From contig CAZBLV010000013.1 in the NCBI GenBank assembly GCA_964493085.1, positions 2,033-66,032 of the forward strand: 64,000 nt of DNA, given 5' to 3'. Made by a program: the position numbers and the translations under genes. Positions 9,097 through 59,508 of the stretch are shown one piece after another; position 1 is the first letter of the stretch; every line of letters begins with the position of its first letter. The DNA comes from an uncultured Candidatus Saccharibacteria bacterium (GTDB lineage: Bacteria > Patescibacteriota > Minisyncoccia > Minisyncoccales > GWA2-38-27). The notes below the pieces were generated by a model. The model worked only from the letters and a program-made list of their open reading frames with translations, was not told where the DNA came from and searched no databases.

Positions 9097-9204
9097 GCCA
9101 ATAGTGAATTTTACCAGAAAAACAAAAATATCCAAGTTTTTGTACTTCGCATTCCTAGCTTCGCTTGTCATTTGCTTAATTTTGGACTAAGATAGTATAT
9201 AAAG

Positions 9205-14112: not shown

Positions 14113-15360
14113 ATGAGACAATCAAAACTTTTTTTTAAAACTGCAAAAAATCCGCCCAAGGAAGCCAAAGTTTCTTCCCACAAGCTTCTTCTAAGGGGAG
14201 ACTTTATTTCCCAGCTTTCTTCCGGTGTTTATAGCTTTCTGCCCCTGGGCCTGAGAGTTCATCGAAAAGTAGAGAATATAATCAGGGAGGAGATAGAGAA
14301 AATAGGCTCTCAGGAAATTTTTCTTCCTGCGCTTCAGCCCAAAGAGCTTTGGCTAAAAAGCGGAAGATGGGACAGCATGGATCCTCCGCTGTTCAAATTA
14401 AAAGACAGGCATAAGAAAGAGTTTGCGCTGGGCTCTACCCACGAAGAAGTGGTTACTGATTTAGCTAAAAACAGAATTCAGTCCTACAAGGACCTTCCTT
14501 TTGCCCTTTATCAGATTCAAACAAAGTTCCGTAATGAAATGCGCTTTACCGGAGGCATTCTTAGGGCTAGGGAGTTTATGATGAAAGATTTGTATAGCTT
14601 TCATAAAGATTTTCAGGGGTTGGAAGATTTTTTTCAGAAAGTTCTTTCTGCCTATGATAATATCTTCAAAAGATGTCTTACGCCGGCCCTTAGAAGCGAA
14701 GCTTCCGGGGGAGTCTTTACCAAAGAAAAAAATTATGAATTTCAAGTTATTTCTAAGGCCGGGGAAGACAAAATCATTTACTGTCCCAAATGCAGCTGGG
14801 CTGCTAATCTGGAAGTGGCAGAAATAAAAAAAGGGGGAAACTGTCCCCGTTGCGGAGGCAAGACAAAAGAAGCAGAGTCTATTGAAGTGGCCCACGCCTT
14901 TAAACTGGGAGACAGATATTCCAAATCGCTTGACCTTAATTTTATAGACAAAAACGCAGAGAAAAAACCTGTTTTAATGGGATGTTACGGAATAGGAGTG
15001 GGGAGGCTGATGGCCACTATTGTCGAAAGCAATCATGACAAAGAGGGCATTGTCTGGCCCAAAGAGACCGCTCCTTTTGATGTCCACCTAGTTCAGCTTG
15101 GCAAAGACAGTTCAGCAAAAGAGAAGGCGGAAAAACTTTACAGAGATTTACAGGCGAGAAGAATAGAAGTATTATATGACGATAGGGAAGAAAAGGGGTC
15201 CGGGGAAAAATTAGTGGAGTCAGATCTTATCGGCATTCCATTAAGAATAGTGGCCAGCGAAAGAAGCGTTAAAAAAGGATCCTTTGAGGTTGCGGAGCGA
15301 GCAGGAAAAACAAGGTTGATTAAATTTAACAAAGTTTTAGATGTTATAAAATCGTGTTAG
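14113..15360 (+). CDS. proS: prolyl-tRNA synthetase, short form without INS editing domain
   Basis: Class II motif 2 is FRNEMRFTGGILRAREFMMKDLYSF and motif 3 is GCYGIGVGRLMATIVE. The space between them (~110 aa) holds CPKC...CPRC instead of the ~180-aa INS domain. An anticodon-binding C-terminus is present. Confidence 0.85.
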   Translation: MRQSKLFFKTAKNPPKEAKVSSHKLLLRGDFISQLSSGVYSFLPLGLRVHRKVENIIREEIEKIGSQEIFLPALQPKELWLKSGRWDSMDPPLFKLKDRHKKEFALGSTHEEVVTDLAKNRIQSYKDLPFALYQIQTKFRNEMRFTGGILRAREFMMKDLYSFHKDFQGLEDFFQKVLSAYDNIFKRCLTPALRSEASGGVFTKEKNYEFQVISKAGEDKIIYCPKCSWAANLEVAEIKKGGNCPRCGGKTKEAESIEVAHAFKLGDRYSKSLDLNFIDKNAEKKPVLMGCYGIGVGRLMATIVESNHDKEGIVWPKETAPFDVHLVQLGKDSSAKEKAEKLYRDLQARRIEVLYDDREEKGSGEKLVESDLIGIPLRIVASERSVKKGSFEVAERAGKTRLIKFNKVLDVIKSC

Positions 15361-16406
15361 ATAAATTTTTATCGCGTCTTTCTTACGACATAGGCATTGA
15401 TTTGGGAACGGCTACTTCATTAGTCTATATTAAGGGAAGAGGAATTGTTATCAACGAGCCTTCGGTTGTTGCCATTAACCAGAAAACAGGCCAAGTTTTA
15501 GCTATCGGAGAAGAAGCGAGAAGAATGGTTGGAAGAACCCCCGCCTTTATTACAGCCACAAGGCCCTTGGTAGACGGGGTAGTCTCTGATTTTGAGGTAA
15601 CCGAGCAAATGCTTAAATATTTCATAGACAAGATCCATAAACGGAAATTTGTATTCGGTCCAAGGCCCCGGGTAATAGTAGGCATTCCTTACGGAGTTAC
15701 CGAAGTGGAGAAAAAAGCAGTTTGCGACGCAACTAAAAACGCAGGAGCCAGAGAAGTCTTTCTAGTGGAAGAGCCCATGGCAGCAGCCATAGGCGCTAGG
15801 ATGCCGGTACAGGAAGCCAGCGGCAATTTTATTGTGGATATCGGAGGGGGAACTACGGAAGTTGCAGTAATCTCTCTTGGCGGCATTGTTATCGCAAAGA
15901 GCTTGAGAGTAGCCGGAGACCGTCTTAATGAAGATATTGTCAGTTTTGCCCAAGAGGAATACAAGCTTCTTATCGGTCTCAGGGTTGCAGAGAATATTAA
16001 AATAGGAATAGGGTCGGTCTATCCCCAAAAAGAGAAAAAAGAGCTTCCTATGAGAGGAAGAAATTTGGTTACCGGCCTGCCCGAGGAAGTTTGGATTTCG
16101 AGTACGGACGTTAGAAAAGCTCTTGAAAAATCAATAAAGCAAATTGTCTCTGCCATAAAAGACACCGTTGAGGAAACCCCGCCTGAGCTGTTAGCTGATA
16201 TTATGTCCAGGGGCATTTATTTGGCAGGAGGAGGGAGTCTGCTAAGAGGACTGGACACCCTTATTCAAGAGGAGACAAAAATGCCTGTTAAGCTTATAGA
16301 AGATCCCATGACAGCAGTAGTCAGGGGAGCCGGAATGGTCTTGGAAAATCTTAATACTTTAAAAGATGTTTTAGCAGAAACAGAGCAACTGGAGCCTCCT
16401 CGTTAA
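15354..16406 (+). CDS. mreB: MreB-like protein (paralog 2)
   Basis: GTG start overlapping the proS stop. Motifs: IGIDLGTATSLVY, DGVVSDF, IVDIGGGTTEVAVISLGGIV, LAGGGSLLRGLDTLI. Confidence 0.85.
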   Translation: MLDKFLSRLSYDIGIDLGTATSLVYIKGRGIVINEPSVVAINQKTGQVLAIGEEARRMVGRTPAFITATRPLVDGVVSDFEVTEQMLKYFIDKIHKRKFVFGPRPRVIVGIPYGVTEVEKKAVCDATKNAGAREVFLVEEPMAAAIGARMPVQEASGNFIVDIGGGTTEVAVISLGGIVIAKSLRVAGDRLNEDIVSFAQEEYKLLIGLRVAENIKIGIGSVYPQKEKKELPMRGRNLVTGLPEEVWISSTDVRKALEKSIKQIVSAIKDTVEETPPELLADIMSRGIYLAGGGSLLRGLDTLIQEETKMPVKLIEDPMTAVVRGAGMVLENLNTLKDVLAETEQLEPPR

Positions 16407-25305: not shown

Positions 25306-25812
25306 ATGGAGGAAAACAAAAACAAATCTAAATATGTTCGGCCCGATTGGGACAATTACTTTTTAAATTTATTGGATCCTTTGAGTAAAAGGGCGACTTG
25401 CGACAGAGGACGCAACTCAGCAATCATTGTAAGCCCCGGAAATACTATTCTGGCCACAGGATATGTGGGATCTCCTCCGGGACAACCTCACTGCGACGAA
25501 GTCGGCCATATGATGGTAACAGTAATTGACGGGAATGGAAACAAGTCGCAGCATTGCGTAAGAACTTTGCATGCTGAAGAGAACGCTATTTTGCAGTGCG
25601 CCAAAGACGGAATAAGAGTTGAGGGAGCCACCCTTTATTGCAAAATGGCACCTTGCTACAATTGCGCTATGAGAATAGTGCGAGTAGGCATAAAAAGGGT
25701 AGTGGCCAAAAAAAAATATCATGCCGGCCAAATGGCTCTGGACTTGTTTGAGAGTGCGGGGGTGAAGATGGATATTATTGACGATTCAGTAGAAGATTAC
25801 AGCCAGCAATAA
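25306..25812 (+). CDS. dCMP deaminase (cytidine/deoxycytidylate deaminase family)
   Basis: Zinc motifs HAEENAI and PCYNCAMRIV; N-terminal WDNYFLNL typical of dCMP deaminases. Confidence 0.85.
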   Translation: MEENKNKSKYVRPDWDNYFLNLLDPLSKRATCDRGRNSAIIVSPGNTILATGYVGSPPGQPHCDEVGHMMVTVIDGNGNKSQHCVRTLHAEENAILQCAKDGIRVEGATLYCKMAPCYNCAMRIVRVGIKRVVAKKKYHAGQMALDLFESAGVKMDIIDDSVEDYSQQ

Positions 25813-25868
25813 ATAGATGCTTTTAAAGGGCTTTGACAGCCCTTTTTTTAAATGTATTATTAATTAAA

Positions 25869-26489
25869 ATGATTGAGAATACTAACCAAGGAAAATTTAT
25901 TGTTTTTGAGGGCCCGGACGGATCAGGCCAAAGTACTCAGGTCTCCTTATTAAGGGATTTTTTAATAGAGAAAGGACATCAGGCGATTATTACCAAAGAG
26001 CCCACCCTGGACTCTGAAGCAGGCAAGAAAATAAAAAAGGTCTTAGAAAAAGAGGTTGAGGCAAGCCCGGAAGAGCTCCAGGAACTGTTTGTTCAAGACA
26101 GAAAGGAACATCTAGAGAACCTGATTATTCCTGCCTTAAAAGAAGGGAAATTCATTATATCTGATCGCTATTTCTTTTCTACTTTTTGCTTCGGAGCCGC
26201 TGCCGGTCTTGATATGGAAGAGCTAATCAAAATGAATAATGATTTTTTGCTTCCAGACCTCACTTTTATACTAAATGTTAGACCCGAAGTCTGCGTCCAA
26301 AGAATTACAAATAGGGGAAGCAAGAAAACGCTTTTTGAGGTAAAAGAAAGATTGGGAAAGGTAATGGAGAATTACAAGAAAATGCCTTCCCGATTTGAGA
26401 ATGTTAACCTTGTTAATGGCGAACAGCCAATAGGAAAAGTTTTCGAGGACATAAAAGAGGTTGTTTACTTAGAAATTTTAAATAAATAA
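25869..26489 (+). CDS. tmk: thymidylate kinase
   Basis: ATG 25869; P-loop FIVFEGPDGSGQSTQ; DRYFFST. Confidence 0.85.
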   Translation: MIENTNQGKFIVFEGPDGSGQSTQVSLLRDFLIEKGHQAIITKEPTLDSEAGKKIKKVLEKEVEASPEELQELFVQDRKEHLENLIIPALKEGKFIISDRYFFSTFCFGAAAGLDMEELIKMNNDFLLPDLTFILNVRPEVCVQRITNRGSKKTLFEVKERLGKVMENYKKMPSRFENVNLVNGEQPIGKVFEDIKEVVYLEILNK

Positions 26490-26495
26490 AGCAAA

Positions 26496-27182
26496 ATGGC
26501 AGAGATATTAAAAAACGCGGGCTCTCACAGAATTCTTTCCATAATGGCGGGCCTGGAAGGAGAAAACCCGCTTCAGCTGATTGAAGTTGCTGGAAGGACT
26601 GCTTATCAAAGCAGAGATAAAGTTGACGACGAATCGGCAGCAAAGTTTGTAGAAATGATAAGAAAAAGGGGGCATGAGTCAGTGTTAGAGCATTCTTGTA
26701 TGGCAGTGGAATTTGATAATGTCTGCCGAGGATTTACCCACGAGCTGGTTCGCCACAGATTGGCAGCTTACACCCAAGAGTCCACGAGGTATGTTGACGA
26801 GAGCGACTTTAAGGTAGTTGTTCCTCCCGATAAAGACGCCAGCGAAAAATTGGTAGATCTTAATCTTCCGAATGGAGAAAAAACGAGAGTTTCTTTTAAA
26901 GACTGGGTTGCCCTTAACGAACAAATGTACAGGGGATTGAGAAAAGCAGGATGGGTTCCCCAGGACGCCAGGCAGACCCTTCCCATAGGAATCAAGGCCC
27001 AAATTGTAGCTACGGCTAATTTTAGGGAATGGCGTCACATTTTTACTTTAAGGTGTTCTCCTGGGGCTCACTGGGAAATAAGAAGAGTAATGACAAATCT
27101 CTTAAAAGAGGTAAAAAAGAGAATTCCGGTTGTTTTTGACGACTTTGAAATTTCAGAAGAGGGCGCCCAGAAGAAATCATAA
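26496..27182 (+). CDS. thyX: flavin-dependent thymidylate synthase
   Basis: ThyX signature ELVRHRLAAYTQESTRY (RHRxxSxxxxSxRY-like). Confidence 0.9.
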   Translation: MAEILKNAGSHRILSIMAGLEGENPLQLIEVAGRTAYQSRDKVDDESAAKFVEMIRKRGHESVLEHSCMAVEFDNVCRGFTHELVRHRLAAYTQESTRYVDESDFKVVVPPDKDASEKLVDLNLPNGEKTRVSFKDWVALNEQMYRGLRKAGWVPQDARQTLPIGIKAQIVATANFREWRHIFTLRCSPGAHWEIRRVMTNLLKEVKKRIPVVFDDFEISEEGAQKKS

Positions 27183-31276: not shown

Positions 31277-32899
31277 TTAGTGAATTTCTTCCTTTTTTTC
31301 CTTTAGGAAGTATCGCCATTGTTCTATGAATTCAACGAAAACCATAAAAGGCATATCTATAAGAGCGTTGAAAAAAGCCGAGATTACATTGTACTTTTTC
31401 CATCTTACAGTAAGCCACTTGCCAAGCTGGACCACTGGAACGGCGAAGGGGTCGAATATGAAATGAAAAAAAGTTTCTTTTTCCTCTATTATCTGCAACT
31501 CCTTGGATCTTTGCCTTATCTTGGCTCCGGCAAAAGCAATCAAAGAAAGGAATATGATAAAGATAACATGAGAGAGCGGAGGAAAGTTTACTTGATAAAG
31601 CCCCCATATTATTAACGTCAAGAAAGCAGCGGAGCTTAGAAGATAAATAAAATTAATTATAGAGCGGATAACTGTGCCACCTTTGCGATAGGCCTTGACT
31701 TCATAGATGTCTTCTATCTCTGTCTTGTAAGCTATCTTCATAATCTCAACTATTACCTGTTGGAGATTCTTCCTTTTGGGAGGTTTTATAGAAACCACTA
31801 GCAAGGCCATCAGCAAGGTAGGGACAAAGATGTCCACTCCGATAGCGAATAAGCTGAAGTTTCCCATTACGTATTTTGAAAAAGGGATTTCAATAGCAAG
31901 CAGAGAGACAATATTAGTTAAAAATATAGAAAGGGTAGAATAAAAAGCCGCTCTTCCAAGGCGCGACTTTAGGGTTTTGAGGCGATTTTTATATTTTTCT
32001 GTGGCTTTTTCTTCTAAAATTTCCGGGTCATTGATTTTTTCTTCTGCATCCAGGGGAAACTCTTCTATAACGTCTCCTAAAATAAGGTAAGGGGTATCGT
32101 ATTTTTCGCAAATTTGATAAAATTTGTCTCCCAGGGGATGAGCGAGATCTTTCTCCAGCCTATCCCAGACAGAATAAATGTTTTTAGTAATCTCTTCTGT
32201 CTCTTTTGGAGACTGATTTTTCCAGGTTGGATAGTAATATTTTAAAAGATGATAGCTTATAACAGGAGAATCTAAATTAAACAGGGCTCTTTGTACCGCG
32301 ATATATGTTTGGATGTTTTTTTCCTCCTCTGGTATTCCGTTCTTTACTATCAAGCCCTCGTTTATTCTTATCTTGTCTTTCATCTGGGAGAACATATAAT
32401 CAATTAATGCCCGCTCTTTGGAAGCAGAGGTGAGAATCTCTTCTATTTCGCAGGCCGCTATTGAAAACAGCCAGTTGTAAAGCCTTATCTTGGATTTTTT
32501 CTTTTGGGCAGGACTGTTATTAATAATATGGGTATATTTTTCAATTGTTCTCTGGACTTCTGCTATTTTTTCCTCTTCAATTTTATCGTTGGGAAAGTGG
32601 CCGCTCCTTATCAGGTCTAAGACCATGGGCTCTGCCAGGTTTTCCACTTCAAAACTGCCGCTTAATAGATCGGCTTTTGAATAGACTCTTCTTTTGAGTA
32701 TTCTCTCTATAGCCCCTCTTTTTAAGAGATGCTCTTCTTTCCAGTCGATAATGCCCCTTAGCTTTTCATAAAAAGCCGCTACCTTAGAGGCTACTTCGTC
32801 CACATGGATTGTGTTTGCTTCTTTTGCGGGCTTCAAAGACCGGCTCCAGGCCTCGTATCTCGCTATTAGCTTTTTAGTTGCCTCGGAAATTTCTTTCAT
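31277..32899 (-). CDS. hypothetical polytopic membrane protein (540 aa)
   Basis: Long ORF with a ~300-aa soluble helical N-terminal region followed by several TM helices. No motif recognised. Confidence 0.6.
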   Translation of the reverse strand: MKEISEATKKLIARYEAWSRSLKPAKEANTIHVDEVASKVAAFYEKLRGIIDWKEEHLLKRGAIERILKRRVYSKADLLSGSFEVENLAEPMVLDLIRSGHFPNDKIEEEKIAEVQRTIEKYTHIINNSPAQKKKSKIRLYNWLFSIAACEIEEILTSASKERALIDYMFSQMKDKIRINEGLIVKNGIPEEEKNIQTYIAVQRALFNLDSPVISYHLLKYYYPTWKNQSPKETEEITKNIYSVWDRLEKDLAHPLGDKFYQICEKYDTPYLILGDVIEEFPLDAEEKINDPEILEEKATEKYKNRLKTLKSRLGRAAFYSTLSIFLTNIVSLLAIEIPFSKYVMGNFSLFAIGVDIFVPTLLMALLVVSIKPPKRKNLQQVIVEIMKIAYKTEIEDIYEVKAYRKGGTVIRSIINFIYLLSSAAFLTLIIWGLYQVNFPPLSHVIFIIFLSLIAFAGAKIRQRSKELQIIEEKETFFHFIFDPFAVPVVQLGKWLTVRWKKYNVISAFFNALIDMPFMVFVEFIEQWRYFLKEKKEEIH

Positions 32900-42447: not shown

Positions 42448-42509
42448 CATACCGTCTCTTTATGCTTTTTTTTATTTGACATCCTTTTAGGGGCAAGGTA
42501 ATGTTTAAT

Positions 42510-43043
42510 ATGGCCAGAAAATTACAAATTGGGGTAATGGGGTCTGCTTCAGACGTTAAATACAGCAAAGAAGTGGAAGAAATCGCTGAAAAAACAGGAG
42601 AACTAATTGCCCGAAAAGGAGCTGTTCTTATCTTCGGCGCGGAAAAAGAATTCGATTCTCTTTCCACAGCTGCCTGCCGGGGAGCGAAAAAGGCGAGCGG
42701 TCTGACGATTGGAATTACTTATAACAAGGGTAAAAAAGTTTTTACCGAAGATGCAGACATCATAATTCCCACAGGAATGGACGTGGGCGGCGGAAGAGAA
42801 TTTGTCTTGGGGTTAAGTTGCGATGCAATGATTGTTATTAACGGAGGGTCTGGCACTCTGAACGAAATAGCCGTTGCTTATCAGGCCAACATACCTATTA
42901 TTGCTATTAAAGGAAGCGGAGGATGGAGTGACAAGTTGGCAGGAACTTATCTGGATGAGAGGAAAAGAATCAAGATTCTGGCAGCAGAAACCCCGGAAGA
43001 AGCAGTCGATTTGGCTGTGAGATTAGGAAAGGAGAAGCAATGA
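42510..43043 (+). CDS. LOG / TIGR00725-like Rossmann-fold nucleotide-binding protein
   Basis: IGVMGSASDV at the N-terminus and a NGGSGTLNE motif, the equivalent of the LOG-family PGGxGTxxE. The first glycine-rich motif is degenerate (IFGAEKEF). Confidence 0.6.
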   Translation: MARKLQIGVMGSASDVKYSKEVEEIAEKTGELIARKGAVLIFGAEKEFDSLSTAACRGAKKASGLTIGITYNKGKKVFTEDADIIIPTGMDVGGGREFVLGLSCDAMIVINGGSGTLNEIAVAYQANIPIIAIKGSGGWSDKLAGTYLDERKRIKILAAETPEEAVDLAVRLGKEKQ

Positions 43044-43103: not shown

Positions 43104-44105
43104 ATGCTAAAGAGTGCCAGCGGTGCGGCCGGCAAGACGTATTTGTTGACTCAGACGCTTTTTGAACATCTTTCCGCATTTAGTTGGATCGGCCTTCAGA
43201 TTCCCCCCCGAGATTTCATCGAAGAGATCGAGAAGAAGGTCGGCCAGCTTGTAGAAGAGATGTTCGCCGGGACCCAAGTCTCGGTGGAAACTCTTTCCGC
43301 TTCAGATTTATTCGGTGCGCTTGTTTCTTCTGTTCAGGACGTTAAGAAAAGCAATCCCGAACTCGTTTTCGTGAGCACTGCTCCTTTGATGGCCTACGAG
43401 GTAGAGGGAGAGTGTGTCCATCTTAATCGTCTTATTGATTGCTCGGGTGAACTTATCGGAATTGGCCCGCGTCCTGGTCATCCGAAAATAGAGGCGCAGT
43501 TGTCTTATCTTCCGAGGGGTGAAAAGAGCCTGGTTATCATTGAGGACGGATCCTTTACGGGAGGGACCATGCAGGCTCTCCTTGGGATCCTGGGCCCCGA
43601 AAGAGTTAGAACAATTGTTCTGGGCATTCTCTTTCCGAGAGCCGCTGATGTTCTTGAGAAGAATTTTGACGGTGAAGTAATCTGCAACAGGAACGAGAAG
43701 GACGATCTCATTGATTGGGTTCCTTCTCACGACTTTCTTCCTTTCATGCCTAACAACGGAAGGGTCGTCGGAAGTTTTCTGGGGAAGAGCTGTTTTCCCG
43801 TTTATCTTTATAACCATGCAAGTCTTTGTATGCCCTATATTCTTCCCTACGGCCGGCCCGAGGAATGGGCTTCCATCAGGGGAGAAAAAGCCAAGATCTG
43901 CCAGTTCAGCATACATTGTATTCAGCTGGCTCTGCAGATTTTCGAAGAGATGGAAAGAATTAACGGCAAGAAAATCACTGTTCAGGATGTGGTTTTCTCC
44001 AGTCCAAGGACCAGCCTTCCTATTGCCCCTAATCAGGGAGGATTTACCGAGCTAAGCGAGAGGGTGACATCGATTCTTTCAGAGGACATTAAGTACCTGG
44101 CCTAA
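43104..44105 (+). CDS. type I phosphoribosyltransferase-fold protein, substrate unknown
   Basis: Central PRPP-loop-like motif SLVIIEDGSFTGGTMQ, followed ~45 aa later by LIDWVPSHDF, reminiscent of the purine-PRT hood. There are unassigned ~130-aa N-terminal and ~110-aa C-terminal regions. Confidence 0.55.
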   Translation: MLKSASGAAGKTYLLTQTLFEHLSAFSWIGLQIPPRDFIEEIEKKVGQLVEEMFAGTQVSVETLSASDLFGALVSSVQDVKKSNPELVFVSTAPLMAYEVEGECVHLNRLIDCSGELIGIGPRPGHPKIEAQLSYLPRGEKSLVIIEDGSFTGGTMQALLGILGPERVRTIVLGILFPRAADVLEKNFDGEVICNRNEKDDLIDWVPSHDFLPFMPNNGRVVGSFLGKSCFPVYLYNHASLCMPYILPYGRPEEWASIRGEKAKICQFSIHCIQLALQIFEEMERINGKKITVQDVVFSSPRTSLPIAPNQGGFTELSERVTSILSEDIKYLA

Positions 44106-45725: not shown

Positions 45726-46913
45726 ATGGACAAAGTTCAAGAAATTATTAAAGAAGTGAGAAAAAACGGAGACAAGGCTGTGAAGAAATATACAGCTGTT
45801 TTTGATAAGGTAGAATTAGATAGATTTAAAGTAACCCGGAAAGACATAAAAAGAGCATACAAAGAAACGGGCCAAGAGGCAATTACGGCGCTGAAAGAGG
45901 CGGCCTCTAATATTAAAGAATTTGCCAGGAGGCAGTCTAAGGGGCTTAAAGACTTTGAATATCAAAAAAACGGAGTCACTTTGGGTCAAAAGATAGTCCC
46001 TCTCGAGAGAGTGGGGGTTTATGCCCCGGGAGGCAGATATCCTTTGCCCTCTACTGCCTTAATGGGGGTGATCCCGGCTAAGGTCGCAGGAGTAAAAGAT
46101 GTTATAGTCTGCTCTCCTAAGATAAAAGCTGTCACCATAGTGGCCTCAGATCTGGCAGGGGCAGAGGAAATCTATAACATAGGAGGCGTTCAGGCAATAG
46201 CCGCTATGGCCTACGGAACAGAGAGTATACCTAAAGTTGATAAGGTGGTGGGGCCTGGGAACGAGTATGTGACTGCCGCCAAAAAAGAAATATTCGGAGA
46301 CTGCGGAATAGATCTTTTGGCAGGCCCCAGCGAGGTTTTAATAATTGCAGACCAAGGGGCAGATTACAAGATAATAGCGGCTGATTTACTGGCTCAAGCA
46401 GAGCATGACGTGAAAGCTAAAATAATTCTTGTTTCAGATTCTGCCTCTTTGCTAAAAGAAGTAGAGGGGGAATTAAAAAATCAGCTGAAGAATATAGACA
46501 CCAGAGAGGTGGCCGGACCTTCCCTTGCTAATAAAAGGTTTGTAAAGGTAAAAAACATAGAAAAAGCCGTTGATGTGGCTAATGAAATTGCCCCCGAGCA
46601 CCTGGAGCTGCAAGTTAAAAGCCCAAAGAAGTATCTTAATAAATTAAAGAATTATGGATCTTTGTTTTTAGGAAAGTATTCAGGCGTGGTTTTTGGAGAT
46701 TACTGTTCGGGGACAAATCACATTCTGCCCACCGGAGGATCTGCTAAGTTTACGGGAGGACTCTCCGTTAAGGGATTCCTTAAAATATTAACTTATCAGC
46801 AATTGCAAAAAAGGGGCGGCGAAAGGTTAGCCGAGACCGCCAAAAAACTTGCTTCCGTAGAAGGGCTTTCCGCTCACAAAAAATCTGTAGAAATCAGGTT
46901 TGATCATGAATAA
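45726..46913 (+). CDS. hisD: histidinol dehydrogenase family protein
   Basis: [56 protein letters not shown]. Confidence 0.85.
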
Positions 46914-52644: not shown

Positions 52645-52679
52645 AAAAAAGCGCCCTGCTTTTGGCCAGGGCGTTTTTT
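52645..52679. terminator. bidirectional rho-independent terminator after rplL
   Basis: CGCCCTG-cttttggc-CAGGGCG, flanked by an A-run and a T-run. Confidence 0.75.
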
Positions 52680-54558
52680 ATATCCCAATTTGATAAACCT
52701 TATTGCCGTTCAGTATCCAGGCCGTTTCTCCTGTTTCAGAGATTGCCAAATCCCTTAAATCAGTAAACTTATTGCTCCGGATTTGCTTGACCACCTGTGC
52801 TTTTTCTTTGTCGACAATTATTATTCTCTTTTGGCTCGGCTCTAAAAGATAAAGATAGGGGAGGGCAGCGTTTGTGGTTATCCTTTCTATTTTTTCAATA
52901 AAGGGGAAAATGTCTAACTTAACCTCTTTTTTTAAGACGCCCTGGTAGAATTCCCAGATCTTGTTTTCTTCGCCCAAAATCCAGACAGATCCGTCTATGG
53001 CCAAAGATTTTGGTTTGGAGCAGGAAAAATCATCTTCCAGCCAGTTTCGGGGAACTCCCCATTGAAGTTTTGCTACGGACGGGTATTTTACAATCTGGCA
53101 GTCTCGGGTTAGGAAATAAATGCTGGACCAGTAGCTGACCGCGTCTACAAATTCTTCCTTCCAGGGCTCTATGCTTTTTGAAATCCAGCCCTGTTCATCA
53201 AGGGAAATAATATTTTTCGGCGGAGAATAAAAGATTGCTTTATTCTGGTAATTGGCAGCCAGGCTAATCGGTTGGTTGCTGGGCACAAACTGCTCTTTTG
53301 GATATATTTGATATACGCCCCCTTGACTCTGCAAATAAACAGAATCTCCTGCTGCCAAAATACTAACAGCGTTTGGCCCTTGAGAATCTATTTCCGACAC
53401 AATAACCGGGTTTTCTATCTCCTCTAGATTGTTAAGGCGGAACAACTTTTGCTCCGTGGTTTCTTTAAGGTCCTCAACCCTGGGAGTCGAGGGAAGCAGA
53501 GAGATTTCTTTCCAGGCCTGTTTTAATAAATCATTGGCTTCTTCTTTTTGGTCAAAAAGAGAATAGTTTTCCGCTTCTGCTATCTTTTTTTCCACCTGGC
53601 TTATTTTCTTTTCCGCTTCCGCTTTCTTGTTTTCTTGGCTTTGCCTGAAGATCAAAAATCCCAGAAGCAAAATCGCTAAAAGAAGTAATATCAAAATCAC
53701 TTTTTTAGAAAGCCGGAAAGGAACGGAAATTCTCTTTTTTGTTCTTTTTTTTGGCGACTTCTTAAATGTTTTTCTCTTTAGTCTTCTGATGGGAGCCAGG
53801 ACAGGATCAAAAACGCCTTTCCAAGAAAAACTTTTCTGATTTTGAAACAGCATAGTGGTTGGACTTTCTTTTTTCAGCTCCTTTTTAAAAGCCAGAATCA
53901 TAAGAGCTCCAGCCGTCTCTGCCCCGTCTTCTTTTTTAAAAAGGGAAGAGGGAAGTATTTCTTTGATTTCCTTTTCTTCTATTTCTCCTCCCTTGTCAGC
54001 TAGTCGGGATAGCAGCCCCTTTTTTGACAGAAAATCGTAGACTTTTTCCGTCATCATCATCATTAAATCGCTCTGTTCTATTTTTCCTGAAATTACATTG
54101 AAAAAAACTTTCAGCGGGTAAGGATCTATTTCTTGCTTTTCTAAACCTCCGCCTATGTCTATAATATTCCCTGCTCTGGCCAGCAGGATTTTTATATTAC
54201 CTGTTTTGGTGAAACTTAATTCCAGCCCCTTTATCGAGAGGACGGCAAATCCAAGATTACCTAGCCAATGGACATTGTTCCGCTGAACCTCTTCTGACAG
54301 AAAAGAATTAGCCGACCTTAGCGAGTTAGTTAAAGAGGTTTCCGGCTTTCCGACCAAAGAAGAGTAAAAGTTTTTTTTGATATTTTCTGCTAAATCATTT
54401 AAGAGCCTTAGGTCTTGGGGAAGGGAAGATTTCACTTCTCCTAAGGCGTATAGTCCTCCCATTCTTTTTTCTGAGGCTTTCTCCGGGCGGTAGATGAAGG
54501 TGTCGAAAGAATAGTCCTTTTTTGCTTTTGGATTGAAGTGGAGTTCGAATATCTGCAT
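52678..54558 (-). CDS. hypothetical bitopic membrane protein (626 aa)
   Basis: A ~270-aa cytoplasmic N-terminal domain, a central TM helix (VILILLLLAILLLGFLIF), a coiled-coil stretch, and a C-terminal repeat-like beta-rich region. No motif recognised. Confidence 0.6.
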   Translation of the reverse strand: MQIFELHFNPKAKKDYSFDTFIYRPEKASEKRMGGLYALGEVKSSLPQDLRLLNDLAENIKKNFYSSLVGKPETSLTNSLRSANSFLSEEVQRNNVHWLGNLGFAVLSIKGLELSFTKTGNIKILLARAGNIIDIGGGLEKQEIDPYPLKVFFNVISGKIEQSDLMMMMTEKVYDFLSKKGLLSRLADKGGEIEEKEIKEILPSSLFKKEDGAETAGALMILAFKKELKKESPTTMLFQNQKSFSWKGVFDPVLAPIRRLKRKTFKKSPKKRTKKRISVPFRLSKKVILILLLLAILLLGFLIFRQSQENKKAEAEKKISQVEKKIAEAENYSLFDQKEEANDLLKQAWKEISLLPSTPRVEDLKETTEQKLFRLNNLEEIENPVIVSEIDSQGPNAVSILAAGDSVYLQSQGGVYQIYPKEQFVPSNQPISLAANYQNKAIFYSPPKNIISLDEQGWISKSIEPWKEEFVDAVSYWSSIYFLTRDCQIVKYPSVAKLQWGVPRNWLEDDFSCSKPKSLAIDGSVWILGEENKIWEFYQGVLKKEVKLDIFPFIEKIERITTNAALPYLYLLEPSQKRIIIVDKEKAQVVKQIRSNKFTDLRDLAISETGETAWILNGNKVYQIGI

Positions 54559-54632
54559 TAATATATTATAACTAGCAGAAACAGAAAAGCAAAAGGTTTA
54601 CTCTTAACAAGCAAAGTTATAAAATGGTAGCG

Positions 54633-54707
54633 GGACGGTTGGCTCAGCGGCAGAGCGCTTCGTTCACATCGAAGAGGACGCAGGTTCGATTCCTGCACCG
54701 TCCACCA
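54633..54707 (+). tRNA. tRNA-Val (CAC) with encoded CCA
   Basis: Acceptor GGACGGT/ACCGTCC, D arm GCTC-AGCGGCA-GAGC, anticodon arm CTTCG-TTCACAT-CGAAG, T arm GCAGG-TTCGATT-CCTGC, discriminator A, then CCA (54705-54707). Confidence 0.85.
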
Positions 54708-54732
54708 AACAGGATTCTGCAAAAGACAAAGA

Positions 54733-54807
54733 GGTTTGCTCACCGCGCCTGCGGGCGCGGCTCGCAAGGAACGAACCGCCTCATTTCCGAAAAAATTTCG
54801 CGGCGAA
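54733..54807 (+). repeat. repeat element copy A (inverted partner at 56561-56643)
   Basis: Its parts are GGTTTGC, the hairpin CCGCGCC-tgcg-GGCGCGG (54743-54760), CCGCCTC (54776-54782), and the 24-mer TTTCCGAAAAAATTTCGCGGCGAA (54784-54807). Confidence 0.8.
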
Positions 54808-54838
54808 TTAAAGGAAAATTTTTTATTTTTGTTTGTTG

Positions 54839-54870
54839 CAGAAATTCTGATGAATTTCTGTTTTTGTTTT
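54839..54870 (+). terminator. rho-independent terminator downstream of tRNA-Val and repeat A
   Basis: A perfect 9-bp stem CAGAAATTC-tgat-GAATTTCTG followed by TTTTTGTTTT. Confidence 0.75.
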
Positions 54871-54980
54871 AAAAACTTTATTTTTTCTATGTTTTTTGGT
54901 AATGTGCGTTAGAGGAGGGTCAAGCTGGTGCTTGGCTCAATTTGTACCTCGAAAACCAAATACAGGAAAGGATAATCGTC

Positions 54981-55742
54981 ATGATCAGTAACGCAACGTC
55001 AGACAGACTCGCCCTTGAAGTTTTGAGGGCCGACACGCTGGAACTCAGAGCGGTCCCAAAGAAGGTGACCAACGAAGAGGTAGATAGTCTACCTCTCAAC
55101 GTGCAGCCGTTTCTTTACGCCTCGGGCAACTGGGGGCCTGGTTATCTCATGATTAAGGGTTTGGTCGGCAATAAGCCGCTGATCAGATGCCTTGGTCGCT
55201 ACTTGGCGCTCGAAATCGCCGAGAAATGGCCGACCGAAATCGATTTTGTTGCTGGCAACGTTACCGGCGGCATGATCCCGGGCTGGTTGATCAGCGAAGA
55301 GTTGGAAGTCCTTCTCGGTAAGCGGATTCCATTCGTTTATATCCGGGAACTTCGGAAGACCGGCGGTCAGAAGGAACTCATCACCGGCTACCAAAAGAAT
55401 CGGGAAATTCCTCCCGGCTCCAGCGGTTTGGATATGGAGGAACTGGTTAACTTCGCCCAGACCATTGCCAACGGCGCGATTTGCCTTCGCGAAGTGGGAT
55501 TCGTCTGTACGAAAGGTGCTTGCATCCTTTACTACGACAATCCTGTTGCGAACAAGGATTTGGCCGCCGCCGGAATCGAGATGGTTTCGTTGCTTACCCT
55601 CCCAAGGATCATCGACGTGGCCGAGCGGTTTGGTACACACCCCAAGGAACTTTTGGTCGAGTACCGCGAGTTCCTGAAAAATCCGTTGCAATGGCAGGCC
55701 GATCGCGGTCTGGCGCATGTAGAAAGAGGGGGTACGAAATGA
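54981..55742 (+). CDS. orotate phosphoribosyltransferase-family protein, divergent PRPP-binding loop
   Basis: ATG 54981 has an AAAGGA Shine-Dalgarno. It is colinear with PyrE: FLYASGNWGPGY (compare FxLxSGxxSPxY), DFVAGNVTGGMIPG, FVYIRELRKTGGQKELITG, and the C-terminal LVEYREFLKNP. The canonical VDDVxTxG loop reads MEELVNFAQT. Confidence 0.7.
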   Translation: MISNATSDRLALEVLRADTLELRAVPKKVTNEEVDSLPLNVQPFLYASGNWGPGYLMIKGLVGNKPLIRCLGRYLALEIAEKWPTEIDFVAGNVTGGMIPGWLISEELEVLLGKRIPFVYIRELRKTGGQKELITGYQKNREIPPGSSGLDMEELVNFAQTIANGAICLREVGFVCTKGACILYYDNPVANKDLAAAGIEMVSLLTLPRIIDVAERFGTHPKELLVEYREFLKNPLQWQADRGLAHVERGGTK

Positions 55743-56431
55743 AAAATCCATTTCTTTTCGTGGCACTCGACGACCTTGGCAACAAGGAATGGGAAACCCT
55801 GGAGGTTGTTCGAGAATTGGATCAAGTACCCGGCAATTTCGGGTATAAAATCAATCTTGACTGCCTAATGGCTGGAGGCGTCAGTGCGACTATCCGTAAA
55901 CTGCTAGTTTCGCGTCCGATCTTTGCCGACACTAAGACATGGAACGGCAAAAGGACAATGGCCGACCTCGCCAAGATGCTGGTTGACGCCAGCGTGGACT
56001 ACTTTAATGTCTGGGTTCAAGCGGACGATCAGCTCGCAGGCGCGGTCAAGGCCACCGAGGGTTCTAAGACCAAGATTCTCGGAGTTACCGTGCTCACTCA
56101 TTACAGTGATGATTGGTGCAGGATGTATTTCCGCCGCTCGCTTGAGGAGACAGTTGTTTTTCTTACTCAGCGAGCAAAGGATCTCGGTTTGCACGGCGTT
56201 GTTTTGCCGGGAACTTGCTTGCCAGCGGTCATGGACAGCGATCGGATCAAGACCGTGCCCGGAATCCGTATGGAGGATTTCAAGGACGATAGGCACAAGC
56301 AGGAGGTCACTCCGGAATTCGCAACTCAAAACGGAGCGGACATAGTCGTGTGCGGAAGCCCGATCATGAAGGTTTCCGACAAGGCGAGCGCGCTTCGTCA
56401 GGTTCTTGCGCGATTGACTGTCACACAGTGA
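55739..56431 (+). CDS. orotidine-5'-phosphate decarboxylase-family protein (short bacterial type), altered catalytic motif
   Basis: ATG 55739 overlaps the upstream stop (ATGA). Motifs: FVALD, YKINLD, FADTKTWNGKRT (DxKxxN instead of DxKxxD), VTVLTH, VPGIR, and IVVCGSPI. Confidence 0.7.
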   Translation: MKNPFLFVALDDLGNKEWETLEVVRELDQVPGNFGYKINLDCLMAGGVSATIRKLLVSRPIFADTKTWNGKRTMADLAKMLVDASVDYFNVWVQADDQLAGAVKATEGSKTKILGVTVLTHYSDDWCRMYFRRSLEETVVFLTQRAKDLGLHGVVLPGTCLPAVMDSDRIKTVPGIRMEDFKDDRHKQEVTPEFATQNGADIVVCGSPIMKVSDKASALRQVLARLTVTQ

Positions 56432-56506
56432 ACAACAAGAGGTCCAGCGGCACCTCGTCATAACAAGACAAAGCCGCTTTTTTCTTTGCCAAAACTTTCC
56501 TTTAAA

Positions 56507-56522
56507 TCAGAAAATTTTCTGA
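56507..56522. promoter_or_regulatory. perfect 16-bp palindrome TCAGAAAATTTTCTGA
   Basis: Exact dyad symmetry in the 357-nt gap between the two island modules. It could be an operator-like site or a hairpin. Confidence 0.35.
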
Positions 56523-56560
56523 AATAAGTTGTGATTAACTTATAGTTTTTATTGTTAAAG

Positions 56561-56643
56561 TTCGCCGCGAAATTTTTTCGGAAAGCGAGGGCGAGGCGGG
56601 ATTTTGCGAAACGCCGCAGGCGTTTCTCTCAAAAAAGGTTTGC
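56561..56643 (-). repeat. repeat element copy B1 (inverted copy of 54733-54807)
   Basis: 56561-56584 is the exact reverse complement (24/24) of 54784-54807. GAGGCGG (56593-56599) and the hairpin GAAACGCC-gca-GGCGTTTC (56608-56626) sit in equivalent positions. Confidence 0.8.
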
Positions 56644-56676
56644 GTATTTTTAATTATAGTCCACCAAATTGAATTA

Positions 56677-56708
56677 GTCGCCTCGTTTGAGAAAAATTTT
56701 TTGGGAGG
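56677..56708. repeat. repeat element B2 (inverted partner at 59509-59542)
   Basis: AGTCGCCTCGTTTGAGAAAAATTTTTTGGGAGG. Its reverse complement aligns by hand with 59509-59542 at about 28 of 33 positions. Confidence 0.6.
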
Positions 56709-56788
56709 ACTTGAAAAATACAGGTCAAATGATAATCTAAATTCGGTAAAGTGTTCTTTCAAAATTACATAAACAGGAGGAAAATGAG

Positions 56789-58180
56789 ATGAAAACACGC
56801 GACCAGTTCGACAGTCTCTCACCGGTTGACTACCGATACTGGGATGAAGAAGTGGCGAAGTATCTCTCCGAGAACGGGTTTACCCGCTACAAGCTTCTCG
56901 TGGAGCTTGCGCTTGTGAGAGCGCTTCACCGCCGTGGAATTTGTCCCGAAGTTGCCGTCAAAGAAGTTGAGACGGCGTGCGGCCGAGTTACGGCCGCCGA
57001 AGTTTACAAGGAAGAAGACCGAATCCGGCACGACATCCGTGCGCTCGTGAACTGCATCCGCGCCGAAGTTAGCGATGTAGCGAAGCCGTACGTCCATATG
57101 ACGGCGACTTCGTTTGATATTGTTGATCCGGCGAACGCGGCTCGCTACAAGGATGCGATCGAGAAAGTACTTGTTCCGTCGCTTACCAAGCTGGAAGGAG
57201 TGCTCATCGCTACCACGCTCCGCGAAGTAGAGACGGTGCAAGTTGGCAGAACTCACGGACAGCACGCCGTACCGATTACGTTCGGATTCGCACTAGCCGG
57301 ATATGTAAGCCGTCTCGGCAACTCTATCGAAAAATTGAGTACGCTCGCCAAAGAATTGCCGGGTAAGTTTTCCGGAGCGGTCGGAGCGTACAACGCCTCC
57401 TCGCTGTTCTTTAATGATCCGGAGAGCTTTGAGGCGGAAGTCCTCGCCGAACTTGGATTAATTGCGGCGGAACACTCGACGCAGATCGTGCCGCCGGAGG
57501 CGTTGACGCGCCTCTTCTGCGAAGTTACGATTGTGGCGGGCATTTTCGCCAACTTGTCCGACGACATGCGGAATCTTCAACGGACAGAGATCGGAGAAGT
57601 GGGCGAAGAGTTTGAAGCGGCGCAGGTCGGTTCCTCGACCATGCCACAGAAACGCAACCCTATCAACTTTGAGAACGCCAAGAGTTGTTGGAAAATCGTC
57701 GCGCCGCGAATCTTGACGGTGTTCATGGACCAAATTAGCGAACACCAGCGTGACCTTACCAATTCCGCCTCCGCGCGGACTTACGGCGAGATTGTCGCAT
57801 ATGTGGTTTCGATCGCAAAGCGACTCACGCGCACCATGAAGAAGCTCACTGTTGACCGCGTTAACTTGGAGCGCAACCTCGCTATGCAGAAGGGCTTGGT
57901 GGTTGCGGAGCCGCTCTACATTATCCTCGCCGCGCTTGGACACCCCGACGCTCACGAGAAGGTGCGGATGCTCACACTTCAAGCCCAACACGAGGTGCGA
58001 CCACTCGAAGAAGTTGTTTTCGGCGATGTGGAGATACAGGGTTATCTTAAACGGATGACTCCCTACCAACGGCAGATTATCTCTAACCCGTCTCTATATA
58101 CGGGCATCGCCGCCAAGAAAGCGAAAGTGGTCGCGGAAAGATGGCAGCAAAAACTCAATCTCAATAGAAAGGAGAGATAG
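56789..58180 (+). CDS. purB: adenylosuccinate lyase
   Basis: SPVDYRY at the N-terminus; GRTHGQHAVPITFG; fumarate-lyase signature GSSTMPQKRNPINFEN. AGGAGG Shine-Dalgarno upstream. Confidence 0.85.
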   Translation: MKTRDQFDSLSPVDYRYWDEEVAKYLSENGFTRYKLLVELALVRALHRRGICPEVAVKEVETACGRVTAAEVYKEEDRIRHDIRALVNCIRAEVSDVAKPYVHMTATSFDIVDPANAARYKDAIEKVLVPSLTKLEGVLIATTLREVETVQVGRTHGQHAVPITFGFALAGYVSRLGNSIEKLSTLAKELPGKFSGAVGAYNASSLFFNDPESFEAEVLAELGLIAAEHSTQIVPPEALTRLFCEVTIVAGIFANLSDDMRNLQRTEIGEVGEEFEAAQVGSSTMPQKRNPINFENAKSCWKIVAPRILTVFMDQISEHQRDLTNSASARTYGEIVAYVVSIAKRLTRTMKKLTVDRVNLERNLAMQKGLVVAEPLYIILAALGHPDAHEKVRMLTLQAQHEVRPLEEVVFGDVEIQGYLKRMTPYQRQIISNPSLYTGIAAKKAKVVAERWQQKLNLNRKER

Positions 58181-58181
58181 A

Positions 58182-59456
58182 GTGAACAGCACAGTGCAGT
58201 TACTGGCAGAGGGAAAGACGAAGAAAATCCTGACAGCGGAAGCTCCAGGACAAGTGATCGTCGAATCCAAGGACGATCTTACCGCTGGAGATGGTGCGAA
58301 ACACGACATCATCGCTGACAAGGCATCACTCTCGAACAGAACTACGTCGAATGTGTTCCGGCTTCTCAAGGCATGCGGCATTCCGGTCGCTTTCCTTGAT
58401 GGGGTGGACGAGACGCGATTCCTCGCAGAGCAGTGCGACATGATTCCCTACGAAGTGGTTGTCAGGCGAGAGGCGCACGGTTCGTTCCTCAAGCGTTATC
58501 CGGGAATTCAAAAGGGGCATATTTTTCCGCGCCTTCTGTTGGAGTTCTTTCTGAAGACTTCTGGCAGGAAGTGGAAAGACGCCGATCTCCCGAAGGACGA
58601 TCCCTTCATGCGTTTCGATGAGAATCGTGCTTTGCTGTATCTGCCCGATCAGCCAATCCATCAACAGACACCGTTTCTGATTCTTGACGATTTTCCTTTG
58701 CGGGAGTCGCCTGACGGAATCAAGCAAATCAGCAAAGTTGCCGTCAAGACCTTTCTCATTCTGGAGAAAGCGTGGCAACTCGTTGGGCGGAGACTGGTGG
58801 ACTTCAAGGTGGAGTTCGGAACGAACACTGCGGGAGAGGTACGGCTCGCTGACGTGATCGACAACGATTCGTGGCGGGTGCTTGACGAAGGAAAATACAT
58901 CGACAAGCAACTTTACCGCGACGGCGCGGATCTCAACATCGTCACAGCGAAGTACCGACTGGTAGCAGAGTTAACCAGTAACTTCAGCCTACCGCGCCAA
59001 CAGATTATTCTCTGGCGAGCTTCAGCGTCCGATGACCTGAAGGCATTTGAGGACGCTATCGCGGCTTACGGTGCGAACAAGGCTTGCGATGTGGAAATCG
59101 CAACTTGCTCTCTTCACAAGGATCCGATTCGAGCGTGCGAAGAAGTCGCTAGACTGGTGCAGGAAGTTCCCAACTCCGTAGTGATTGTCTTCTGCGGAAG
59201 AAGTAATGGAGCGGGGCCGACTCTGTCCACGCAATGCACTGTGCCGGTAATCACGGTTCCAGCAACGTGGCGGGAGTTCCCCGAAGATGTGTGGTCATCG
59301 CTCCGCACGCCGAGCGAGACGCCGGTCGTTACAATCCTCGATCCTAAGAACGCTGTTCTTTCGGCGCTTCAAATTCTTGCGATGGGAAACCCACGGCTCT
59401 ATGCCGAGCTTCGCTTTCGGCAAGAGAAGCGTCTCCACAATATTATTAGACTCTGA
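58182..59456 (+). CDS. bifunctional SAICAR synthetase / AIR carboxylase fusion (PAICS-like, PurC-PurE)
   Basis: GTG start 1 nt after the purB stop, with an AAGGAG Shine-Dalgarno. The N-terminal half has AEGKTKKIL, SKDDLTAGDGAKHD, GSFLKRYPG and LADVIDNDSWR. The C-terminal half has PurE-like WRASASDD, CGRSNGAGPTLS and DVWSSLRTP. Confidence 0.8.
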   Translation: MNSTVQLLAEGKTKKILTAEAPGQVIVESKDDLTAGDGAKHDIIADKASLSNRTTSNVFRLLKACGIPVAFLDGVDETRFLAEQCDMIPYEVVVRREAHGSFLKRYPGIQKGHIFPRLLLEFFLKTSGRKWKDADLPKDDPFMRFDENRALLYLPDQPIHQQTPFLILDDFPLRESPDGIKQISKVAVKTFLILEKAWQLVGRRLVDFKVEFGTNTAGEVRLADVIDNDSWRVLDEGKYIDKQLYRDGADLNIVTAKYRLVAELTSNFSLPRQQIILWRASASDDLKAFEDAIAAYGANKACDVEIATCSLHKDPIRACEEVARLVQEVPNSVVIVFCGRSNGAGPTLSTQCTVPVITVPATWREFPEDVWSSLRTPSETPVVTILDPKNAVLSALQILAMGNPRLYAELRFRQEKRLHNIIRL

Positions 59457-59467
59457 CGAGCTGACGA

Positions 59468-59508
59468 AGGGGTATTACCAGAAATGGCAATACCCCTCTT
59501 TTGTTTTT
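59468..59508 (+). terminator. rho-independent terminator ending the island operon
   Basis: An AGGGGTATT(a)CC-agaaat-GG(c)AATACCCCT hairpin followed by TCTTTTGTTTTT. Confidence 0.75.

Follow-up and report, generated by a model that had tools for sequence, protein, structure and literature searches.

Can an enzyme built like the bifunctional PAICS of animals be an ordinary bacterial protein, and if so, how did its gene reach the genome in which it is found here? The question is raised by one open reading frame (ORF) in a 64,000-nucleotide stretch of contig CAZBLV010000013.1, which is referred to below as the window and in which all positions are counted. The ORF encodes a protein of 424 amino acids (aa), in which a synthetase for succinylaminoimidazolecarboxamide ribonucleotide (SAICAR), the PurC function, is followed by a carboxylase for 5-aminoimidazole ribonucleotide (AIR), the PurE function. 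In textbooks, the carboxylation of AIR without PurK by a fusion of PurC and PurE is an animal or eukaryotic trait. In reviews, PAICS appears as the eukaryotic solution, and PurK together with class I PurE is presented as the microbial route and as a selective antibacterial target (PMC10912719, PMC10484210). As detailed below, the window very probably encodes a functional bacterial enzyme of the PAICS type, a member of a large and old family, that arrived here by horizontal gene transfer on a GC-rich cassette of 4.5 kb. The gene and the parts of its product are arranged as follows:

58182..59456, + strand: PAICS-type bifunctional gene (SAICAR synthetase plus predicted class II PurE), 424 aa, uninterrupted ORF with a GTG start
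58203..58928, + strand: SAICAR synthetase (PurC) domain, aa 8-249 (Pfam PF01259 SAICAR_synt, expectation value (E) 1.3e-44); sites in this half are the ATP loop GKTK (aa 11-14) and LADVIDNDSWR (aa 222-232)
58563..58676, + strand: insertion of ~35 aa within the SAICAR synthetase domain, aa ~128-165, from the alignment with animal PAICS and bacterial homologues
59031..59429, + strand: AIR carboxylase domain, predicted class II PurE, aa 284-416 (Pfam PF00731 AIRC, E 8.8e-17); sites in this half are S281/D284, S310-L-H312-K313 and G339-R-S-N-G343

A preliminary description of this DNA had proposed a PAICS-type architecture with the domain order and nearly the length of the animal enzyme, and this was borne out. 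Both Pfam domains were found in the one ORF, the human (2H31, 6YB8) and insect (4JA0) enzymes have the same order of SAICAR synthetase and AIR carboxylase in 425 aa, and all five motifs quoted in that description are present. The motifs LADVIDNDSWR, GSFLKR, SxHK, GRSNGxGP and DVWSSLR are common to the fusion protein and animal PAICS. When the protein was aligned with human PAICS, whose reference sequence was checked as 100% identical to the database entries, identity was 35.8% over the whole chain, 40.7% in the N-terminal half and 27.8% in the C-terminal half.

The relationship was also evident from searches of the PDB. By sequence, the best match was insect PAICS (4ja0, E 1.6e-62) in a single alignment covering aa 6-421, followed by human PAICS (2h31, E 1.2e-57), with stand-alone PurC (~1e-26) and stand-alone PurE (~1e-4) behind them. 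An AlphaFold2 model of the monomer, built from an 11-sequence alignment, reached a predicted local distance difference test score of 86.6 and a predicted template modelling score (pTM) of 0.89. When this model was compared with the PDB by Foldseek, the top six matches were PAICS chains, the best being human PAICS (6yb8, E 1.4e-32, template modelling (TM) score 0.68), with insect PAICS also among the matches; after PAICS came PurC structures covering the N-terminal half and the class II PurE of T. denticola covering the C-terminal half. The chain and its motifs are thus closer to PAICS than to separate PurC and PurE, as had been suspected.

Conservation extends to the active-site residues listed for human PAICS (PMC9376930). 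In the SAICAR synthetase half, 22 of the 24 listed residues are identical to the human ones, among them, in human numbering, the GKTK loop, E97, K131, D137, K191, E193, D207, D212-S-W-R215, K228 and R232. The two mismatches are N43 to D, a change that insect PAICS shares, and D133 to S, at a site that varies across the family. In the AIR carboxylase half, S274, D277, S301, H303, K304, G330, R331, S332, N333 and G334 (human numbering) are all kept.

Canonical PurC (E. coli 2GQR, T. maritima 1KUT, S. pneumoniae 4FE2) has the same fold as the SAICAR synthetase half, with TM scores to the target of 0.85-0.89, and shares with it the residues that bind ATP and carboxy-AIR (CAIR). In contrast to the fusion, canonical bacterial and archaeal PurC is a stand-alone protein of ~235 aa whose partners are a class I mutase PurE and the ATP-dependent PurK, and it carries LADE(I/F)SPDxxRxW at the site of LADVIDNDSWR. 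At this site S. pneumoniae PurC reads LADEFSPDNCRLW, P. horikoshii PurC LADEISPDTCRFW and T. maritima PurC LGDEISPDTFRL, so that the contrast between the two motifs given in the preliminary description was correct.

The sole structural difference from animal PAICS lies in the ~35-residue insertion in the SAICAR synthetase domain (FLKTSGxxW...DDP), which the bacterial fusions carry and the animal enzymes lack, as seen when human, fish and sponge PAICS were aligned with bacterial homologues. Within the insertion, W131, D139, D140 and P141 are invariant in an alignment of 11 diverse members, and two beta-strands (142-146 and 149-153) are predicted in the AlphaFold2 model. In addition, animal PAICS has M-G-S-T-S-D as the P-loop of its PurE half, where the fusion protein has R-A-S-A-S-D, and, unlike the animal gene, the fusion gene resides in a bacterial host and is linked in an operon to purB.

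Whether the PurE half belongs to class II, which uses CO2 independently of PurK, had been left as a question, and the diagnostic residues were therefore inspected. In the 40s loop, S310-L-H312-K313 aligns with S301-A-H303-K304 of human PAICS, whereas class I structures have SAHR. In the 70s loop, G339-R-S-N-G343-A-G-P corresponds to GRSNGLGP in the human enzyme and GRSNALSG in T. denticola PurE, compared to AGGAAHLPG (1o4v) and AGLAAHLPG (2ywx) in class I proteins. Among single-domain structures, the one most similar to the C-terminal half is the T. denticola PurE (3RG8), a stand-alone class II enzyme that shares the GRSN(G/A) 70s loop, although it is unfused, has ~160 aa and is only ~24% identical to this half; the PurE half of animal PAICS is much closer (E 1e-15 vs. 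1e-4). By every available sequence criterion, the PurE half would therefore be assigned to class II, with the SxHK and GRSNGxGP motifs and the structural neighbour in agreement. The earlier statement that purK is missing also holds for the window, where none turned up in the ORFs of 150 aa or more, nearly all of them scanned or provided with JGI Pfam calls, and in the related loci for which gene calls were inspected no PurK lies next to the fusion.

The fusion turned out to be common in bacteria. When 5.8 billion proteins were searched with a word index, 3029 matched the fusion protein, and the best 120 of these all have both Pfam domains in one protein, 117 of them with a length of 420-480 aa; the named sources among these 120 are Gracilibacteria, Patescibacteria, Colwellbacteria, Paceibacterota, Sungbacteria and Verrucomicrobiaceae metagenome-assembled genomes (MAGs). 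A scan of GTDB with one genome per species revealed a full-length fusion in at least 586 species representatives, the best 80 of which all span residues ~7-424. The matches include Patescibacteria (Gracilibacteria, Staskawicz-, Giovannoni-, Vogel- and Taylorbacteria, Paceibacterota, Saccharimonas), Verrucomicrobiota (Chthoniobacter, Terrimicrobiaceae, Akkermansiaceae) and Dependentiae, as well as many Xanthobacteraceae, Pseudolabrys and Rhodoplanes of the Alphaproteobacteria, one Gammaproteobacterium, Polyangiaceae and Tepidisphaerales. An exhaustive HMMER search of 1.84 billion representatives of 50% identity clusters gave 2328 clusters at E<=1e-3, of which 467 remained at E<=1e-30, and in it the full-length fusions were mostly nearer to the window protein than to human PAICS. 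Some JGI entries are already named 'phosphoribosylaminoimidazole carboxylase / phosphoribosylaminoimidazole-succinocarboxamide synthase', which is a PAICS-type name. The rarity in bacteria that the preliminary description had implied is contradicted by these numbers and, as such fusions are both common and annotated, its claim of novelty is refuted by the standard that it had set itself.

The bacterial fusion is thus a large, old bacterial family, abundant in databases and essentially uncharacterised, and no relevant paper on bacterial fusions of the PAICS type was found in searches of the literature library used. Public fusions of PurC with class II PurE from Patescibacteria, Dependentiae, Chthoniobacter and Pseudolabrys, likewise uncharacterised, are 54-85% identical to the window protein and have the same insertion and motifs; some of them sit within pur clusters, whereas the window gene lies on a compositionally foreign cassette beside a tRNA gene. 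Stand-alone PurC proteins of the PAICS subtype, ~270-300 aa long and 45-50% identical to the N-terminal half, also exist. A more distant PurC-PurE fusion, 37% identical to the window protein (BLASTP), was found at 8001-9275 of locus L099 and belongs to a large prokaryotic clade; its neighbours encode a phosphoribosyltransferase, MetK, a PfkB kinase, a hydrolase of S-adenosylhomocysteine and PurD. This locus shows the fusion in a second deep prokaryotic lineage, possibly an archaeal one. Searches of IMG/VR and GenBank phages yielded no fusion but only PurC-only homologues of at most 39% identity, on many viral contigs, and a phage-borne auxiliary gene was ruled out on this basis.

The immediate surroundings of the fusion gene bear on its expression and function:

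56789..58180, + strand: purB (adenylosuccinate lyase), 463 aa, co-oriented with and abutting the PAICS gene (Pfam Lyase_1 and ASL_C)
58169..58174, + strand: Shine-Dalgarno sequence AAGGAG, 7 nt upstream of the PAICS GTG start (58182)
59468..59497, + strand: likely terminator of purB-PAICS, a hairpin with arms of 13 nt and a loop of 4 nt ahead of a T-rich run, from an inverted-repeat search

The purB product matches TIGR00928 with E 5e-85, although its score (285.8) is below the cut-off (326), and it matches adenylosuccinate lyases in the PDB down to E 1.8e-41. Its TAG stop codon (58178-58180) lies between the AAGGAG and the GTG start of the fusion gene, and this arrangement argues for translational coupling of purB and PAICS. 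The hairpin at 59468-59497 was not listed by a simple terminator scan. In the closest relatives (84-85% identical) purB also lies directly upstream of the fusion; the purB-PAICS pair is present in loci L086, L089 and L092, and in L086 (84% identical) the two genes likewise overlap or are adjacent. A relative of 58% identity, on a 523-kb contig with 35% GC (L002), has the order purP-purP-guaA-PAICS-purB-purM-purL-purQ...purD and is of Dependentiae type, and two Dependentiae loci (L009 and L017) have similar pur clusters, the clusters around the fusion in Dependentiae being complete. The context in the relatives therefore supports an ordinary role in purine biosynthesis.

In this role the C-terminal class II PurE would convert AIR and CO2 directly to CAIR, without PurK, ATP or N5-CAIR (N5-carboxyaminoimidazole ribonucleotide), and the N-terminal SAICAR synthetase would then use CAIR, aspartate and ATP to produce SAICAR. 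The upstream PurB, translationally coupled as proposed, would cleave SAICAR to aminoimidazolecarboxamide ribonucleotide and fumarate, so that PAICS and PurB together would cover steps 6-8 of de novo purine synthesis. Both half-reactions of the fusion protein are predicted from its sequence, octameric assembly around a PurE core and substrate channelling are presumed by analogy with PAICS, and the AIR may be supplied by the host. The system is not of a new kind, and the chemistry expected for the enzyme is that of PAICS.

To examine how the gene came to lie here, the composition of the region was considered. The fusion gene is the last of four in a cassette of ~4.5 kb (~54.98-59.46 kb) with the order pyrE-like, pyrF, purB and PAICS, whose further features are:

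54633..54707, + strand: tRNA-Val(CAC), which borders the cassette on the left and may mark the site of integration (ARAGORN; Rfam tRNA, 69 bits)
54784..54807: left arm of a 24-nt perfect inverted repeat, TTTCCGAAAAAATTTCGCGGCGAA (inverted-repeat search)
54981..55742, + strand: pyrE-like gene (divergent, resembling orotate phosphoribosyltransferase genes), 253 aa; 54942 is the start of the longest ORF
55739..56431, + strand: pyrF (orotidine monophosphate (OMP) decarboxylase), 230 aa (Pfam OMPdecase, E 1.2e-19; JGI gene call in locus L004)
56561..56584: right arm of the 24-nt perfect inverted repeat, within the AT-rich pyrF-purB spacer
56659..56675, + strand: imperfect direct repeat of the 3' end of the tRNA-Val gene, 14/17 positions (GTCCACCAAA..GATT; 54700-54716 vs. 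56659-56675)

The pyrE-like product has no Pfam match; it matches NCBIfam PRK00455 with E 4e-16, well under the cut-off, and orotate phosphoribosyltransferases of the PDB down to E 1.2e-7 over aa 42-239. The pyrF product matches OMP decarboxylases of the PDB down to E 6e-11.

A GC-rich island around the fusion had been described, and the GC profile of the window shows it to be real: GC is 0.51-0.58 from ~55000 to 59470 compared to ~0.40 in the flanks, and in the 300 nt past the tRNA-Val gene it climbs from 0.41 to 0.55, ~275 nt downstream of which the cassette starts. The four genes have a GC content of 0.52-0.55, and their GC content at third codon positions (GC3) is 0.60-0.64 compared to 0.41 +/- 0.036 in the 49 other ORFs of the window (z 5.3-6.4). 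Codon choice differs accordingly, with 76% vs. 26% CGN for arginine and 70% vs. 32% AAG for lysine in cassette and background, respectively. This difference in GC3 indicates that the cassette was probably acquired horizontally; the direction and the source of the transfer are inferred. The inverted repeat brackets pyrE-pyrF, and its 24-nt sequence matches the window twice, with 0 matches expected in shuffles. The copy of the tRNA-Val end, which lies in mid-cassette in the AT-rich spacer before purB, is a possible att-like remnant, weak as evidence, and together the inverted repeat and this copy may be what is left of one or two insertions. When the AT-rich spacers of the cassette were searched against Rfam, nothing besides the tRNA was found, and a riboswitch or other structured RNA was ruled out for them on these grounds. 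A permuted tmRNA called by ARAGORN at 54611-55366, overlapping tRNA-Val and pyrE, is likely a false positive, as Rfam gave no tmRNA at E<=1.

Among the 99 related loci examined the full four-gene cassette was not seen; purB-PAICS recurs in the three loci named above, and one Taylorbacteria locus (L077) has the order pyrF-PAICS-purB. A GC-rich PAICS gene or purB-PAICS pair in AT-richer flanks was detected in several loci of bacteria of the candidate phyla radiation (CPR), namely L086, L089, L092, L006/L090, L087, L088 and L005, where the PAICS gene has a GC content of 0.49-0.57 compared to 0.37-0.46 in the flanks. This recurrence speaks for horizontal spread on several occasions rather than for a chimera of the assembly, and suggests repeated recent transfer of the PAICS lineage among CPR genomes. 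In the 53%-GC genome of L001 the PAICS gene is compositionally normal, and a genome of this type is a plausible kind of donor.

Other explanations of these data have to be weighed against that of a functional, horizontally acquired enzyme. That adjacent purC and purE genes were joined by a frameshift in sequencing or assembly has as its only basis the separate genes of textbook bacteria, and no evidence for it was found, whereas the best 120 homologues, from independent assemblies, have both domains in one protein, the GTDB genomes match across nearly the whole chain, the linker region is gap-free in the alignment of 11 diverse fusion members and the model folds as one chain with a high pTM. 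As thousands of independent homologues share the architecture, the artefact was ruled out by its breadth and retains practically no probability. A class I N5-CAIR mutase in the C-terminal half, dependent on a PurK from another part of the genome, is very unlikely too. The Pfam AIRC and TIGR01162 models are blind to the difference between the classes and the view is limited to a 64-kb window of the genome, which leave some room for it, but the S-L-H-K and G-R-S-N-G-A-G-P loops are class II-like, the nearest neighbours are PAICS and the T. denticola class II enzyme, and no PurK was found in the window ORFs covered or beside the fusion in the related loci inspected for it; class I identity was accordingly rejected from motifs and structural neighbours.

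The function of the cassette as a whole is less constrained. It could be a stand-alone module for late pathway steps or salvage, acting on orotate and on AIR (or its riboside) as intermediates that a host or the surroundings provide, or else a recent passenger without function. No other pur or pyr gene of the de novo pathways was found in the window, de novo nucleotide synthesis is reportedly absent from most Patescibacteria, with the genes scattered phylogenetically (bioRxiv 10.64898/2026.06.21.733656), the closest relatives on long contigs hold PAICS alone, and the recurrence of GC-rich copies in AT-rich CPR genomes points to several recent transfers, all of which would fit. On the other hand, the genome is seen over only 64 kb, or ~75 kb with the extra flank in L004, the cassette includes no transporter and no kinase for AIR riboside, and de novo purine synthesis was reported to be complete in ~32% of CPR MAGs (PMC11608272), with which the figure of 7% for de novo nucleotide synthesis in Patescibacteria is at odds (bioRxiv 10.64898/2026.06.21.733656). 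As the ORFs are intact, the catalytic residues conserved and a ribosome binding site present, decay is unlikely, and the module or passenger explanation is considered improbable overall. Some of the same facts weigh against the functional, horizontally acquired PAICS-type enzyme itself: besides purB, no other de novo purine gene was found among the window ORFs of at least 150 aa; the majority of Patescibacteria are reported without the pathway (bioRxiv 10.64898/2026.06.21.733656); and L001 and L005, the closest long-contig relatives, carry the PAICS gene alone on contigs of 0.64 and 0.83 Mb. Furthermore, the fusion protein scores below the cut-off of both NCBIfam equivalogs, with 98.4 against 189.9 for purC (TIGR00081) and 54.7 against 149.6 for purE (TIGR01162); the att-like repeat, with 14/17 matching positions, is weak, and the ORFs and gene calls of the window include no integrase or transposase. 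To our knowledge, no enzyme of this bacterial fusion clade has been assayed.

The remainder of the window, which corresponds to contig MLSed_10000020 of JGI metagenome 3300001533, was used to place the host. Relatives of its GyrB come from Pacebacteria, Parcubacteria DG_72, Nealsonbacteria and Minisyncoccales, and outside the cassette the window holds housekeeping genes. From these genes the host is assigned to the CPR bacteria of Paceibacteria/Parcubacteria type. The 'minimal genome' assumed in the preliminary description is backed indirectly, by these GyrB relatives and the housekeeping content of the window, and only to that extent.

Some other loci of the window deserve mention. Two full-length MreB paralogues, each with a Pfam E of ~1e-139, are encoded less than 5 kb apart (10522-11529 and 15354-16406). 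A compact pyrimidine and deoxynucleotide cluster at 25306-27182 comprises a dCMP/cytidine deaminase, a thymidylate kinase and ThyX. Directly after hisS lies hisD (45726-46913; Pfam E 5e-157), encoding histidinol dehydrogenase; it stands alone, as no other his genes were seen in the window, which is otherwise poor in biosynthetic genes. A SLOG/LDcluster4 (LOG-like) protein is encoded at 42501-43043, after a tRNA cluster (Tyr, Thr, Trp). Four ORFs gave no Pfam match at E<=1e-5, those at 52678-54558 (- strand, 626 aa), 31277-32899 (- strand, 540 aa), 7738-9171 (- strand, 477 aa) and 43104-44105 (+ strand, 333 aa), the last of which has the highest GC3 outside the cassette (0.52).

Finally, the position of animal PAICS relative to the bacterial fusions was considered with a neighbour-joining tree, a rough one that has no support values and includes many metagenomic representatives. 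In this tree the animal clade (human, fish and the sponge Oscarella) stands beside a cluster of Woykebacteria and Microgenomates, inside a very diverse prokaryotic radiation, which hints at a bacterial origin of the PAICS architecture; as the tree has no support values, this signal is taken as a lead only. With regard to where the architecture arose, a question already put in the preliminary description, the bacterial diversity is far beyond what was assumed there. A more far-reaching proposal would make pyrE-pyrF-purB-PAICS a horizontally circulating 'late-steps' module that lets auxotrophic CPR cells finish purines and pyrimidines from host AIR (or its riboside) and orotate in the absence of the early steps, and would make its fusion family the source of the animal architecture; we regard this combined proposal as speculative and rather unlikely.

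With regard to the organism, the locus illustrates how a small cassette for nucleotide biosynthesis, foreign in its composition, can reside in a reduced Paceibacteria genome, and it fits the reports of patchy nucleotide-synthesis genes in the phylum. With regard to the family, the PAICS architecture is widespread in bacteria, in free-living Verrucomicrobiota and Alphaproteobacteria as well as in CPR bacteria and Dependentiae. This bacterial spread qualifies the textbook dichotomy between the eukaryotic and the microbial routes and bears on the provenance of animal PAICS.

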